From assembly GCA_000004985.1 (NCBI GenBank), contig GG738879.1: a DNA stretch of 64,000 nucleotides; one strand, 5' to 3'. Below, one piece after another: positions 52,055-62,820 of this stretch. Source of the stretch: Naegleria gruberi (lineage: Eukaryota). The position numbers and the translations under genes are program-made. The notes beneath the pieces were generated by a model that made no database searches, was not told where the DNA came from, and saw only the letters and a program-made list of their open reading frames with translations. Numbering within the stretch: the stretch's first letter is position 1; each line of letters begins with the position of its first letter.

Positions 52055-53461
52055 ATGACAAGGAACTTTAAAAAAATGAGCCTATTCGGTAGTAAGCAAG
52101 CCTCAGCTGAGGTTGAAAATATCAAAGTGTTGCCGCCTCTCCCTCAAAAGACGAGGAGTCCTCTGAGTCCTGAAGATCCGGATACTGATGTTCATTTGAT
52201 TATTTGTATAGCAGGAATGGGTGCTAGAAAGGGACATTTTCTGAGTGATTCACTTCTCTCGCAATTCGGAAAGTGGTTTGATATCAACAAGTGCCAATCT
52301 GCAATGAGGGATACAATGCAAACAGCTATTCAAAATTATGGTACTGAACAGATAAAGAAGAAGCCTCCAAAGATTGTAGTAAAATCTATTGATTATTGTT
52401 CGGTAGTAAGAGAAGAGGGAGGTTATAATGACAAGTTGGGAAGAGTTTCTATGAAATCGGGAGCAGCTCTATTGAGAATGATTGCCAATGAAAGTATGAT
52501 TGATGTGCTAATGTATAATAGTGAAAAGATTAAGAAGCAAATTCTTAGTGTAGGTTTTTCTCTGAGTTTTCTTAAAATTAATTCCTTTTTATTACGCAAA
52601 CTGTCACAAATTAATACAATAATGATTGAAAATAGGAATCTGTGAAACAAATCAATGACATTTTTGAAGAAATGGAAGGAATACCATTGAAATCTATTTC
52701 CCTAGTGGGTCACTCTCTAGGATCTGTTGTAGCTTTTGATTTGCTTCATCAAAACCAAGAATCTGGAAAGACCTTGTTGAAGATGCAACCAAATTTTTGT
52801 TTCCTTGTTGGATCACCACTTGGATTATTCTTGACAATGGATTTCCAAACTGAAAAGAAGCAAATGGAATCTTTCAATTATGTGAACCCAGCTACAGGAA
52901 AGAGACAATTATTGAAGGAGGTGCCAATCTTTCACTTGTACCATCCATACGATCCTGTTGCTTATAGATTGGATCCTCACTTGGATCCTGCATTTTCAAA
53001 TTATGATCCATTTGAACGTAAGTTGAATTAATAGTTAAACAATTTCTCAATAATTTAAAGTGGAGTTCTTTGTAAGAAGATCAAAGGGTTCAAGTCTTCC
53101 TGTTGTACAAATAACCAATGCTGTAGGTTTTATAATTTTTAAAATTCTATAAGTGTATTAATTAATGTTCCAGTTCAATTCTGTTTTAACTACTTTAGGC
53201 GTAAACAAAAAACCAGATGAAAATTATAAGAGATTAGTTAGATTATATGAAATGTAAGTAACACTTATTGAGGGAATTGTCTTAATGATTTTCAACAACA
53301 GTGTGGATCATGCTCTTCCAGTCATGTCAGAAGTTGTTGTAAATGAATATTTGAATGCTGGTGATGTTCACTTGAAATATTGGTCGAACACTGAAGTGAA
53401 TTGTTTCATTCTGGAAAAGATTGGAGTTTTGAAAGTTGAGAAACAAAAACAATCAGCTTAA
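52055..53461 (+). CDS. DDHD-domain phospholipase (PA-PLA1/DDHD-like). Five exons: 52055..52549, 52636..53017, 53061..53126, 53199..53253 and 53302..53461. The small middle exons are tentative.
   Basis: Lipase motif LVGHSLGSVVAFDLL. DDHD-family blocks …FHLYHPYDPVAYRLDP… and a C-terminal …VDHALP…HLKYWSNTEVNCFILEKI…. The junctions AGT|GTAGGT…AATAG|GAA and GAAC|GTAAGT are clear. Exons 3-5 were chosen to maintain frame and are less certain. Confidence 0.6.
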
Positions 53462-53511: not shown

Positions 53512-54498
53512 TTAGAAGAGAGCGAGCATCAACATCATGATCAAAGCAGCTCCGAATGTGAAAACAGTTGAAGCACTGCTCTTACAGACACTCTTAAAGT
53601 TTGAACATCTTTGAGTTGCAGGTGGAACATATCCGTCAGTAGAAAGTGACAAACTACCATCAGAATTCTTTGTATATGTCTGTTGTTTTGGAATATTTCA
53701 ATTATTCATTTGATTTCAATCACATGTTAATGAAATTAAGGTTAATAATGAAATATTAAACATACAGTTTCTTCATAAGTATAATCACCACATGGTCCAC
53801 TATAATAATAAGAATTCTTGAAAGTATCAACAGCCTTGGTACCAGTAATGACAATATTTGAACAACTGTGGAAAGCAGTTTGACAAATAGTTGAAGTATT
53901 GGTAGAAGATGGAGGATATGAACAACATGTACCCATTGATTTGGTTTGAACGTTGAACATGGCAAGAGAACACTTTGGACAATTAATATCTGGAATGGTG
54001 ACAGTAATTGAATAGTTGAATGAAGTCTTATTGACAACATCATTGGTGGCGTGTGGAATGTGATCCAAGAGAACGTACTTATTGTAATCATCATCACCTC
54101 CAATACTCAAAGCAAGTCTATATGGAGAACCATCATGACTATTTTCCTATAAATATTTCATGACATTTAATCTTCCTTACTATTAAACACTTACAGTTGG
54201 ATACAAAGTACCCTATAAATAGTTGTAGTAGTTGAAGTTGAAGTATAACAAATATTTCATTATAATCATCCCACACAATTAACTATTTACTTACTTGGAA
54301 TTGAACAGTGAGTTTACCTGGAGCAATAGTGGTAATAGGTTGTCCATCACCAAAGAATTGAACACCACCACATGGATAGGTATATAAATCATTGGCAGAG
54401 GTTCTTGGAGGTGGATAGACAAGTCTGGTGTGAGCAAGGGCTCCAGTAACGAGGCATACAGCCATCACCAAGAAGGTACAGAGAAGAATCTTTTGCAT
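53512..54498 (-). CDS. Secreted GPI-anchor-type protein with an LPMO-like N-terminal histidine (putative copper-dependent auxiliary-activity or copper-binding protein). Exons 54498..54295, a possible micro-exon 54212..54195, 54146..53766 and 53679..53512.
   Basis: Signal peptide MQKILLCTFLVMAVCLVTGALA. The predicted mature N-terminus HTRLVYPPPR fits the LPMO H-x-x-(L/V/M)-x-x-P-x-x-R start. There is a second His cluster (…LLDHIPHATND…), several Cys pairs, and a C-terminal S-rich stretch with a hydrophobic tail (…SASTVFTFGAALIMMLMLALF*) typical of GPI signals. Junctions CAA|GTAAGT, ACT|GTATGT and CAACAG|ACA are in frame. Confidence 0.55.
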
Positions 54499-55363
54499 TT
54501 TGTTTTTTAGTTTTCAGAAAATTCAAACATTCTCTTTGGAGTTTTTAAGAGTTTTTTGAAGAGCATGATTCACACCTTTCATGTTCTAAATTAGGGTATT
54601 TATCCATTGAACGAACACTCGCTTAGATGAACACTCTTAGAGATCTGTTGTTTGATGAGGACATAATTGGGGTTTTGAGTTGGCTTACTGCATCATGTGG
54701 TGAAATACATTGCAATTAGCCGAAAGCCAAAGGAAAATATTATAAATATATATAAATATTATATTGCTTACTAATTGCTATTGTGTGGTTGGTTTTGTGT
54801 GGAAAGAAGAAACCGTTTTGTGATCAAAGAACATGTTGCATTGTTTAACATATTGTGTCCACAAAATATCTACTCATGTGTGGGAACCAAGAAGTAATAA
54901 GGCAGGAATCAGTGCACCTATTACTCAAAACAAGAAGCAAATTGATAGGGTTTTGATTGGGTGCGAAATATTTTGATTGGATTTTGATTGAATGCAGAAA
55001 GCTTTGTTGATAGGTGATGTCCAAGAATGGTCTTTCTATTTTATTGGTGGAAATTTGTTCTTTTATGGAGTTTTGAATGCAGGCTATTGGTAAGGGAGAA
55101 TTTGTTGATGAGATAGATATTTTTCAAATGAATTATTGGTGAATTATTTACAGAATATTTAGAATGTTGTTAGGTTGTGTGGAAGGATAAATATTAACTG
55201 TAATACGATGTTGAAGCCTTAATGAGTTGGAATGATTTTAAGGAAAATATCGAGATGTAACCTTCATACCAAAAATCGATAAATAATGTTGAGTAATAAG
55301 AATACATCACTCACTGAAAAAACCAAAGATGTTTTATATTTATTTTACAGAGACAAAAAGGTG

Positions 55364-55434
55364 TAGGAAGACAGGGAATCGAACCCTGATCTTAGGAACC
55401 ACAATCCCATGTTCTACCACTGAACTATCTCCCT
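55364..55434 (-). tRNA. tRNA-His (anticodon GTG).
   Basis: The minus-strand sequence AGGGAGA-TA-GTTC-AGTGGTA-GAAC-A-TGGGA-TTGTGGT-TCCTA-AGAT-CAGGG-TTCGATT-CCCTG-TCTTCCT-A folds as a 71-nt cloverleaf. It has a 7-bp acceptor stem, GTG at positions 34-36, a TTCGATT T-loop and an A discriminator. A T5 terminator follows. Confidence 0.85.
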
Positions 55435-60741: not shown

Positions 60742-60814
60742 CGCCCACCGTGGGGGTCGAACCCACGACCACAAGGTTAAGAGCCTTGCGCTCTACCGAC
60801 TGAGCTAGACGGGC
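60742..60814 (-). tRNA. tRNA-Lys (anticodon CTT).
   Basis: The minus-strand sequence GCCCGTC-TA-GCTC-AGTCGGTA-GAGC-G-CAAGG-CTCTTAA-CCTTG-TGGTC-GTGGG-TTCGACC-CCCAC-GGTGGGC-G is a 73-nt cloverleaf. It is near-identical in architecture to metazoan tRNA-Lys-CUU. A T-run follows. Confidence 0.9.
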
Positions 60815-61307: not shown

Positions 61308-61457
61308 ATGCAATTTGCTGAACAGCAACCTATAAAAGAAAACCGTAGGCAAAACAAAGAATTATTGTTTATCTTAAAAAGCAATGTAAGTACCACACTT
61401 ATTGTTTGTGGTATATATATGATTTCTGTTTTTTATGTTGCTCCGAATATCATGTGA
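61308..61457 (+). promoter_or_regulatory. Candidate upstream ORF in the SAMDC 5' leader (MQFAEQQPIKENRRQNKELLFILKSN…). It may be spliced via a leader intron at 61386..61497.
   Basis: An ATG at 61308 opens a short frame. A GTAAGT lies at 61386 and a pyrimidine-rich …TCTCTCTAG| at 61497. If spliced, the uORF ends 7 codons into the next exon. SAMDC genes in many eukaryotes carry regulatory uORFs. Confidence 0.3.
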
Positions 61458-61578
61458 TGATGAAATAACGGTTTTGGAATATATTTATCTCTCTAGGCCA
61501 TCCTCCACCCATCCTAGCACTGAATGCGACCATTGTCAAGAATCTGTTGCTGCTGAAGTAGAACATGTCGCTCAAGAA

Positions 61579-62820
61579 ATGACCCACGTTAATGGTAAAC
61601 CAATTCTTGTTAACTATGCCGAAAAGCATGTTAAACACGTTGATTGTGAATGTTGTGCTGAAGCTGGATTCGAAGGTCCAGAGAAGAGATTAGAATTAGA
61701 TTTCCGTCCTATTGCTAGTGACTTGCCAATTTATCAACAATATAAGGATAAGCATAGAGATGGTTCTGAAGAAGATGACATTTCAAACTTCTACAACTTG
61801 ATGAACGTTACTGATGAAACTTGGCAATCCATGTTGGACTTGGCTTGTTGTAGAATTCTTTCCAAGAAGACTAACGAACATTTTGTTTCTTATGTTTTGA
61901 GTGAATCTAGCTTGTTTGTTTTTAAGAGAAAACTTGTCATCAAGACTTGTGGTACCACCACATTGTTGGGTATTTTGAAGAAGTTGAAGGAAATTGCTGC
62001 CACTCAAGGTTTGGAAGCTGAATTGGTTATTTTCAGTAGAAAGAATTATGTCTTCCCACATAGACAACCACATTACCACTCCTCTTTCGAAGAAGAATTG
62101 AAATACTTGACTGATGATTTCCCAGGTGGTGAAGGCCACGTTGTCGGTTCAGTATTGTCTGACCATTGGTATATTTACATTTGTGATATGCAAGGTGTTG
62201 ATGATCAAATTACAAAGGATCCTGACCAAACATTGGAAGTTTTGATGCACGATTTGGATCCTGCTGTTATGAGACAATTTATGGAAGAAGCTAGAAAGGA
62301 AAGAGCTCCTGGTGTTACTATCGAACAACAATCTGGTATTGATAAATTGTTGCCAGGTTCCGAAATTGATTCCTTCGAATTTGATCCATGTGGTTACAGT
62401 ATGAACGGTTTATTGGGTAAGACTTATTGGACTATTCACATTACTCCAGAAGATAGCTGCTCATTTGTCAGCTTTGAAACTAATGTTAAGACATCCAAGA
62501 TTGAAAATTACTCTGAACTCATTGAAAGAGTTATTCATACTTTCAGACCAGGTCGTTTCACTGTTACTTTGTTTGCTGATGACCACTGGGATATTCAACA
62601 TGAACTCCACAGAACTCCAAGCAAGCAATGTTTGTCAGACGAACACACCACTCTCTTGGACCAAGAATCCTTCCAAATCCACAATTCCAACTTGATGAAG
62701 ACTTACAGTGCTTTCACTAATTTGGCTCTCGGTGATGAATACAAATTGAAGAGTAAGACTTTCTACGAATTCACTGGTGGTTACAATTTGACTTTCACTA
62801 ACTTTGCCAAGATTAAGTAA
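61579..62820 (+). CDS. AMD1: S-adenosylmethionine decarboxylase proenzyme.
   Basis: FEGPEKRLELDF (the N-terminal signature of SAMDC) and the autoprocessing site …YVLSESSLFVF… are present, with collinear similarity throughout. The true ATG is at 61579 (MTHVNGKP…). The track start at 61435 is non-ATG. Confidence 0.85.
   Translation: MTHVNGKPILVNYAEKHVKHVDCECCAEAGFEGPEKRLELDFRPIASDLPIYQQYKDKHRDGSEEDDISNFYNLMNVTDETWQSMLDLACCRILSKKTNEHFVSYVLSESSLFVFKRKLVIKTCGTTTLLGILKKLKEIAATQGLEAELVIFSRKNYVFPHRQPHYHSSFEEELKYLTDDFPGGEGHVVGSVLSDHWYIYICDMQGVDDQITKDPDQTLEVLMHDLDPAVMRQFMEEARKERAPGVTIEQQSGIDKLLPGSEIDSFEFDPCGYSMNGLLGKTYWTIHITPEDSCSFVSFETNVKTSKIENYSELIERVIHTFRPGRFTVTLFADDHWDIQHELHRTPSKQCLSDEHTTLLDQESFQIHNSNLMKTYSAFTNLALGDEYKLKSKTFYEFTGGYNLTFTNFAKIK

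Follow-up and report, generated by a model that had tools for sequence, protein, structure and literature searches.

The current definition of lytic polysaccharide monooxygenases (LPMOs), and of the non-catalytic proteins related to them, draws on fungi, bacteria, insects, oomycetes and viruses. In the enzyme TdAA15A (PDB 5MSZ) of family AA15, His1 and His91 form the histidine brace and Tyr184 is the axial residue, a position taken by phenylalanine in insect AA15 enzymes (PMC9156745). The non-catalytic X325/Bim1 proteins (LaX325, PDB 6IBH; Pfam PF20238) are fungal, and their site is defined by an aspartate acting as fourth equatorial ligand. Here we describe a gene of the protist Naegleria gruberi, located on the minus strand at positions 53512-54498 of a 64,000-nucleotide stretch of contig GG738879.1 (the whole stretch being referred to as the window), whose product very likely belongs to the LPMO superfamily as a histidine-brace protein anchored at the cell surface. 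An earlier note made from the letters of this DNA had pointed to such a protein, secreted and anchored by glycosylphosphatidylinositol (GPI).

Gene structure

The gene consists of four exons separated by introns of 82, 48 and 86 nt, all three with GT...AG ends. Its features are as follows, in window coordinates.

53512-54498, minus strand: whole gene, 4 exons and 3 introns, with a 771-nt coding sequence for a 256-residue LPMO-like surface protein
54295-54498, minus strand: exon 1 (residues 1-68), start ATG at 54498
54433-54498, minus strand: signal peptide, residues 1-22 (MQKILLCTFLVMAVCLVTGALA), with an A-L-A cleavage motif and family-wide statistics at -1 and -3
54403-54432, minus strand: predicted mature N-terminus HTRLVYPPPR; His23 is the candidate first brace histidine, and P29 and R32 are nearly invariant
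54195-54212, minus strand: 18-nt micro-exon (GTLYPT, residues 69-74), encoding a lineage-specific insertion of five extra residues directly N-terminal of the candidate brace residue His78
53766-54146, minus strand: exon 3 (residues 75-201), predicted beta-sandwich core
54135-54137, minus strand: His78, candidate second brace histidine, aligned with TdAA15A His91 and ScLPMO10C His144
54051-54065, minus strand: D102-H-I-P-H106 motif, kept in eukaryotic members and putatively on the copper face
53946-53948, minus strand: Gln141, where nearly all homologues (185/197) have the Met of NPMTDK
53868-53873, minus strand: Phe166-His167; Phe166 is at the axial Tyr/Phe position and His167 is conserved
53512-53679, minus strand: exon 4 (residues 202-256 and stop codon), stop at 53512-53514
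53515-53580, minus strand: GPI-type C-terminal signal SSAS-TVFTFGAALIMMLMLALF, residues 235-256, assigned by rule

The 18-nt micro-exon was already named in the earlier note, and it is backed by an orthologue on an environmental heterolobosean-like contig (L001:528-1483), in which the equivalent segment, RGSVNPDEKSH, has the same length and lies inside one continuous exon. This orthologue is 54% identical to the window protein over the full length, and comparison of the two genes gives a ratio of non-synonymous to synonymous substitution (dN/dS) of 0.35, dS being saturated. The best homologue of the window protein is a protein of Naegleria lovaniensis (E = 4.7e-65). In a tblastn search with the 256-residue product the gene is its own sole match in the window, with no second copy nearby, and the plus strand opposite carries only open reading frames (ORFs) of at most 37 residues. 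From these sequence comparisons, we consider that the N. gruberi gene is intact and that purifying selection acts on it.

A chance ORF or motif is ruled out by the homology to the N. lovaniensis protein and by the single occurrence of the N-terminal motif in the window. Bacterial contamination or an island of horizontal gene transfer is ruled out by the spliceosomal introns and by a base composition like that of the surroundings.

The introns of the L001 orthologue differ from those of the window gene: none surrounds the equivalent of the micro-exon and an extra one follows codon 38, between GLL and TYP. The intron after EET/EYA is common to both genes. The differences indicate an apparent gain or loss of introns within the lineage.

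Predicted mature N-terminus and membrane anchor

The sequence MQKILLCTFLVMAVCLVTGALA combines a basic n-region (MQK), a hydrophobic core and an A-x-A site directly followed by His23. Cleavage before His23 was judged by rule together with family statistics, the GPI signal by rule. In 123 full-length homologues the conserved histidine stands at median position 22; 122 of them have A, G, S or C just before it, and all 123 have V, A, S, I, C, T or G at -3. The N-terminal pattern H..[LVM]..P..R has a single match, HTRLVYPPPR, among the roughly 128,000 codons of the window read in six frames. The mature start predicted in the earlier note, with cleavage directly before the histidine, is supported by the family-wide statistics. 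Its reading of this start as an LPMO-like brace pattern is supported by the positions of His78 and Phe166 on known copper-site residues, described below.

At the other end of the protein, CK-SSAS-TVFTFGAALIMMLMLALF offers the small residues S235-S238 as omega candidates, with 18-21 residues after omega and a hydrophobic tail that reaches the last residue, leaving no cytosolic tail; by rule, this agrees with the GPI-type signal that had been proposed. The L001 orthologue ends in the same GPI-type pattern. Among the C-termini of 188 family members, 52 show a GPI-like hydrophobic tail, 56 a transmembrane helix followed by a basic cytosolic tail, and 13 belong to longer multi-domain proteins with a transmembrane or hydrophobic segment, while 61, many of them possibly fragments, have no hydrophobic segment. 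Because of these counts, we regard predicted membrane tethering as a trait of the family. In the window protein about 10 residues separate a conserved C-terminal extension of the domain (Y196, E199), modelled with high confidence, from the omega site, so that the domain would sit against the membrane.

Residues of the putative copper site

The homologues form a eukaryotic and a bacterial branch, whose profiles match each other with a probability of 100% and E = 5e-40 (hhalign). In the family set of 203 members, the His23 column holds histidine in 156/161 homologues and the His78 column in 196/198, and position 166 is tyrosine in 184/188. The conserved histidines beyond the N-terminus and the conserved cysteines mentioned in the earlier note can now be specified: all five histidines of the window protein (23, 78, 103, 106 and 167) fall in conserved columns, as do six of the ten cysteines of the mature protein (43, 130, 133, 149, 162 and 169), which are conserved in 80-98% of the 203 members and in 93-100% of those with a residue in the column.

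Profile alignments place the histidine of the motif E-E-T-I-x-H-x-G-x-P-F-R, His78 in the query, on TdAA15A His91 and on chain position 110 of ScLPMO10C, which we take to be His144 in full-length numbering. The tyrosine position of Y-H-S-C-A-N-I, Phe166 in the query, falls on TdAA15A Tyr184, on chain Phe185 (= Phe219) of ScLPMO10C and on AoAA13 Tyr224. Against the PDB, the bacterial-branch profile matches TdAA15A at E = 4.8e-5 and CelS2 (ScLPMO10C) at E = 1.5e-3, and the merged profile matches TdAA15A at E = 3.9e-4 and an AA11 at E = 2.3e-3. Among matches at E <= 10, LPMOs make up 7/7 for the merged profile and 5/7 for the bacterial-branch profile, the other two being leukocidins at E ~0.6.

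Eukaryotic members carry in addition a DHxPH motif (D in 153, H in 183, P in 195 and H in 173 of the 203 members), which profile alignments did not find in the bacterial branch, AA15 or AA10. In the structural model of a paralogue presented below, His78 and Tyr166 would both have to be located at the copper end of the sandwich; four strands (83-89, 98-104, 116-124 and 128-139) separate the two, and by the parity of these strands the H-x-P-H loop (after 98-104) and the Met loop of NPMTDK (after 128-139) would both lie at the copper end. Asp102, His103 and His106 are placed on the copper face through this parity only. Asp102 would not be a universal fourth ligand, as 37/203 members have Asn at this position and the bacterial branch lacks the motif.

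Three changes set the window protein and its L001 orthologue apart from all other members: Phe for the axial Tyr, Gln for the Met of NPMTDK, and the insertion of five residues before His78. Between the F66 and H78 columns there are 7 residues in 192/203 homologues and 12 only in these two proteins, and the insertion displaces a Glu that is invariant in the merged 73-sequence alignment. At the apical position, two residues before the second histidine, the family has Ile (E-E-T-I-x-H) and the query Asn76 (E-N-S-H).

Fold and relationship to described families

The structure modelled is that of a 51%-identical paralogue from N. lovaniensis (74-sequence alignment) rather than of the window protein. 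With a mean pLDDT of 85, a pTM of 0.77 and a domain at 90-98, this model adopts the immunoglobulin/fibronectin type III-like (Ig/FnIII-like) beta-sandwich of AA9-AA11, AA13-AA17 and X325. Its first 23 fold matches are all LPMOs or LPMO-like proteins, with listed figures of 11.2 for TdAA15A, 11.2 for an AA11, 10.3 for LaX325, 9.6 for AA13, 8-9.6 for many AA10s, 8.0 for AA16 and 8.0 for AA9, and a Foldseek search against the PDB returned AA10, fusolin and X325. The LPMO-like fold that the earlier note proposed to look for was thus recovered, in the paralogue model. In the curated profile models of Pfam (AA9, LPMO_10, BIM1-like), the window protein passes no threshold.

In a Foldseek search of the same model against BFVD, the top matches were two unnamed viral proteins, M1I575 and M1H9N6 (E = 3e-5 and 5e-5, 220 aligned columns, 18-21% identity); GP37 and fusolin came after them. 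Going by the accession series, the two unnamed proteins may be of chlorovirus origin.

Three features of the LPMO superfamily are predicted for the window protein, namely the sandwich fold (from the model), a mature N-terminus starting with histidine, and a second brace histidine with an axial Tyr/Phe. Membership of a described family is another matter. The window protein has no Pfam match to LPMO_10 (PF03067), AA9 (PF03443) or BIM1-like (PF20238) at E <= 10, and taken singly it matches no PDB sequence at E <= 10. A eukaryote-only profile reaches only the N-terminus of an AA16 in the PDB (E = 0.21, non-significant), and the sequence link to AA15 and AA10 is significant only via the bacterial branch. 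Other PDB profile matches are marginal (AA11 2.3e-3, AA16 0.075, AA13 0.48, AA9 0.43) and fall short of membership at the sequence level. The sole Pfam match of the window protein, to a CSL zinc-finger (E = 0.11), was taken as chance, and AA18 was set aside as being CelOCE, which is unrelated.

The differences from each neighbouring family are specific. For AA10/AA15 (PF03067), the query does not reach the gathering score and lacks the apical Ala (Ala89 in TdAA15A). The W-x-Y-x-x-G-N region of AA15 (TdAA15A; insect LPMO15) is replaced by NPMTDK, and DHxPH and the conserved C-terminal extension are further differences. AA11 and AA10 proteins (PDB 7P3U, 4OY7, fusolin and others) share 9-19% identity, no curated model being passed, and unlike them the window protein has neither L2-type surface loops nor carbohydrate-binding modules (CBMs) and is predicted to be membrane-anchored. 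The X325/Bim1 family shares the GPI anchor, predicted by rule in the window protein, but its gathering score of 27 bits is reached neither by the query nor by any scanned member (P0107, the one member with a bit score seen, obtains 21.2 bits against PF20238), and no profile matched 6IBH in the PDB at E <= 10.

The closest curated model is NCBIfam NF043005 ('SCE4755 family polysaccharide monooxygenase-like protein'), a hypothetical-equivalog model of Bdellovibrionales and related bacteria. The query scores 45.6 bits (E = 6.9e-12), below the 75-bit cutoff, and is homologous yet outside the equivalog; the paralogues match it at E ~1e-19. The motifs H-x-R...P-R, G-x-K-x-x-P-C-G, E-E-T-I-x-H-x-G, C-x-x-C-x-L-Q, M-T and Y-x-S-C-A-x-I are common to both. 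The bacterial proteins differ in being about 180 residues long, in lacking DHxPH and the C-terminal extension, and in standing in an apparent two-gene operon with a Cys-rich ORF. We regard the clade, as delimited by these profiles, as a separate, large, widely distributed and mostly membrane-tethered LPMO-like group, with the window gene as a divergent member.

Extent and architecture of the clade

A profile of the first eight homologues retrieved 1532 cluster representatives at E <= 1e-3, and 797 at E <= 1e-10. They come from Heterolobosea, Amoebozoa, Rhizaria, CRuMs, a sponge and Bdellovibrionales, and include N. lovaniensis, N. fowleri, the sponge Oscarella lobularis, Diphylleia rotans, the cercozoan Mataza, the foraminifer Bolivina and the amoebozoans Gocevia and Vermistella. 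One match, P0199, bears the JGI name of the TIGR03382 family, which we take to be a myxobacterial sorting domain; judged from that name, the clade probably includes myxobacteria. UniProt names the N. lovaniensis and N. fowleri members automatically as 'Chitin-binding type-4 domain-containing protein'. Most bacterial members have precomputed Pfam matches to LPMO_10 and BIM1-like, and of 74 eukaryotic members 17 match BIM1-like, 2 LPMO_10 (best E = 3.6e-4) and 1 AA9, all weakly. Searches on Naegleria LPMOs, sce4755, the histidine brace in amoebae and GPI-anchored protist LPMOs returned no description of the family, in literature that left subscription journals uncovered.

N. gruberi itself has a second member, paralogue A (EFC38007 / NAEGRDRAFT_74224), which is on another scaffold and 46% identical to the window gene, hereafter paralogue B. 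A homologue of paralogue A exists in N. fowleri (FDP41_007507).

Several members are fused to other modules (P0039, P0087, P0123, P0057, P0060, P0067, P0047, P0174, P0177, P0185 and P0069). A DOMON domain with cytochrome b561 is found in P0039 and P0087, and a glucose/sorbosone dehydrogenase (GSDH) of the pyrroloquinoline quinone type in P0123, a Vermistella antarctica transcript. DOMON with cytochrome b561 and GSDH resemble the electron donors of LPMOs, such as the cytochrome of cellobiose dehydrogenase, CYBDOM and AA12-type dehydrogenases, and these fusions argue that the copper would be repeatedly reduced. In other members the fusion partners are Hint autoprocessing modules, or GYF_2 or WW domains on the cytosolic side of a transmembrane segment.

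Directly before the SCE4755-family gene, three unrelated bacterial contigs carry a Cys-rich ORF of 167-211 residues with a lipoprotein-like N-terminus, which overlaps the gene by 4 bp (L002:5501-6004, L003:5492-6004 and L004:5369-6004). This ORF has neither an NCBIfam match nor a precomputed Pfam match. The arrangement looks like a conserved two-gene operon, and the neighbourhoods in the three genomes contain no copper or polysaccharide genes near the SCE4755-family gene.

Annotation of the gene

Among 5.8 billion clustered proteins, none is more than 63% identical to the window product. Three neighbouring single-exon ORFs of the window, in contrast, are exact matches to EFC42514, EFC42512 and EFC42510, of a 384-kb scaffold, in the same collection, which also bears out the protist origin supposed in the earlier note. 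Because this collection holds both these neighbours and paralogue A, the window gene very probably has no model in the public N. gruberi annotation, a conclusion that rests on its absence from the protein collection. The 18-nt micro-exon may have caused gene finders to miss it.

Proposed function and alternatives

In the mechanism that we propose, signal peptidase would free His23, whose amino group and imidazole would, with His78, hold one copper, with Phe166 beneath it. A GPI anchor would be added near Ser235-Ser238, tethering the single domain to the plasma membrane on its outer side and, as a consequence, to the membrane of phagosomes as well. The copper would be redox-active, cycling between Cu(II) and Cu(I) through an external or membrane electron donor, and would act like the copper of an LPMO in oxidising a glycan, whether of the cell surface or of engulfed prey. 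This oxidation of a surface or prey glycan is a tentative proposal, for which we would claim slightly less than an even chance. We commit to it because the significant sequence links lead only to catalytic AA15, AA10 and AA11, because active enzymes commonly vary between Phe and Tyr as axial residue, and because fusions to redox partners exist. Chitin-like beta-1,4 polymers would be the first guess for a substrate, since AA15 and AA11, the characterised relatives closest to the clade, act on chitin. The literature searched on Naegleria cyst walls yielded no usable information on their composition. Paralogue B may differ from the main family in substrate or reactivity, because its site has been remodelled: Tyr is replaced by Phe and Met by Gln, and the loop before His78 is five residues longer.

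A number of observations weigh against glycan oxidation. No experimental work on any clade member was found in the literature, subscription journals being outside the search, and the fold was seen in the model of a 51%-identical paralogue rather than in the window protein. The family has no CBM, its redox-partner fusions are rare (3 among the Pfam-scanned members), and the Ala found at the apical position in AA10/AA15 is Ile in the family and Asn in the window protein. Among the Pfam matches of eukaryotic members, weak BIM1-like ones (17/74) outnumber those to LPMO_10 (2/74) and AA9 (1/74). A GPI anchor almost without stalk resembles the non-catalytic fungal X325/Bim1 proteins, and a near-invariant Met with extra His and Asp, placed on the copper face by strand parity, would suit the hand-off of copper better than the production of strong oxidants.

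The main alternative is a GPI-anchored, Bim1/X325-like copper-acquisition factor, which would capture extracellular Cu(II) at the plasma membrane and pass it, perhaps once reduced, to Ctr importers without oxidising any polysaccharide. We consider this role possible, though somewhat less probable than glycan oxidation, and between a catalytic enzyme and a copper-handling protein we lean to the enzyme only tentatively. The stalkless anchor, the missing CBM, the weak BIM1-like matches and the additional His, Asp and Met of the copper face all speak for copper acquisition, and the hand-off would have a plausible partner because N. gruberi possesses functional plasma-membrane Ctr copper importers, as reported in a copper-deprivation proteomics study (PMC9035749). 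The accessions of the paralogues are nevertheless absent from the text and readable supplements of that study. Moreover, all scanned members stay below the PF20238 gathering score, with the query giving no match at all; the Asp that would provide the ligand is Asn in 37/203 members, the DHxPH motif is lacking in the bacterial branch, and the Met is Gln in the window paralogue. In sequence, the family is significantly linked to the catalytic AA15 and AA10 but to X325 it is not, and fusion to a sugar dehydrogenase better fits catalytic turnover.

A non-enzymatic surface protein that uses the LPMO fold as an adhesin, a lectin or a receptor for prey or matrix, with copper structural or absent, is improbable in our view. 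The Ig/FnIII-like beta-sandwich would suit such a role, as would the receptor-like architectures of some members (a transmembrane segment with cytosolic GYF_2 or WW domains; Hint modules) and the loss of three near-invariant residues in the window paralogue (Tyr166, Met141 and the Glu before His78). Yet both brace histidines are kept and every histidine is at a conserved position, His23 following exactly the cleavage site, a feature selected only for coordination by the N-terminal amine. The substitutions are common to the environmental orthologue, with a dN/dS of 0.35, and an axial Phe is normal in active AA10 and insect AA15 enzymes (PMC9156745). Least probable of all is a decaying or unexpressed gene copy, which would account for the missing annotation. 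It would agree with the lack of any protein above 63% identity in a collection that holds the neighbours and paralogue A, and no transcript-derived sequence was found. Against it, the frame runs unbroken through four exons whose splice sites are canonical, neither the signal peptide nor the GPI signal is truncated, the conserved Cys and His are all kept, and an orthologue with the same lineage-specific residues exists at that same dN/dS; the micro-exon suffices to make a gene finder miss or break the model.

Neighbouring genes

The gene is convergent with a multi-exon gene of the DDHD-domain type (phospholipase-type, GHSLGS motif) at 52055-53461 on the plus strand, the two stop codons lying about 50 bp apart. 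A tRNA-His(GTG) occupies 55363-55434 on the minus strand, about 0.9 kb upstream of the start codon of the LPMO-like gene, and a tRNA-Lys(CTT) lies at 60742-60814 on the minus strand. Further along, an ORF at 61435-62820 (plus strand) runs uninterrupted for 461 residues and its exact product is present in Logan/ENA assemblies, whereas the GenBank protein EFC42444 (adenosylmethionine decarboxylase) has 413 residues. The start or the gene model of EFC42444 may have been annotated differently from this ORF.

Significance of the clade

For the N. gruberi annotation, the present result supplies an apparently missing gene model, 18-nt micro-exon included. The assignment of the fold will in itself hardly surprise specialists, and databases already flag relatives in the clade by automatic names. 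What deserves attention is the breadth of the clade, the DHxPH motif, the redox fusions and the presence in Naegleria, N. fowleri included.

More speculatively, and in our estimate rather unlikely as a whole, the clade would be a new LPMO family of membrane-anchored copper oxidases, present in several eukaryotic lineages and in predatory bacteria, wired to trans-membrane or dehydrogenase donors and acting on glycans of prey, cell surface or cyst wall. DHxPH would then belong to a copper site unlike any described, and N. gruberi would carry a remodelled second paralogue. If true, this would make the clade a candidate for a new AA family in CAZy, one with a representative in a pathogen, N. fowleri, through its paralogue-A homologue.

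Members of the clade, with the LPMO fold and a putative brace, are found in phagotrophic protists, a sponge and predatory bacteria. The characterisation of a single member would help decide between an oxidative copper chemistry at the surface of free-living and pathogenic amoebae and Bim1-like copper scavenging, and would reveal the effect of DHxPH on the brace site.

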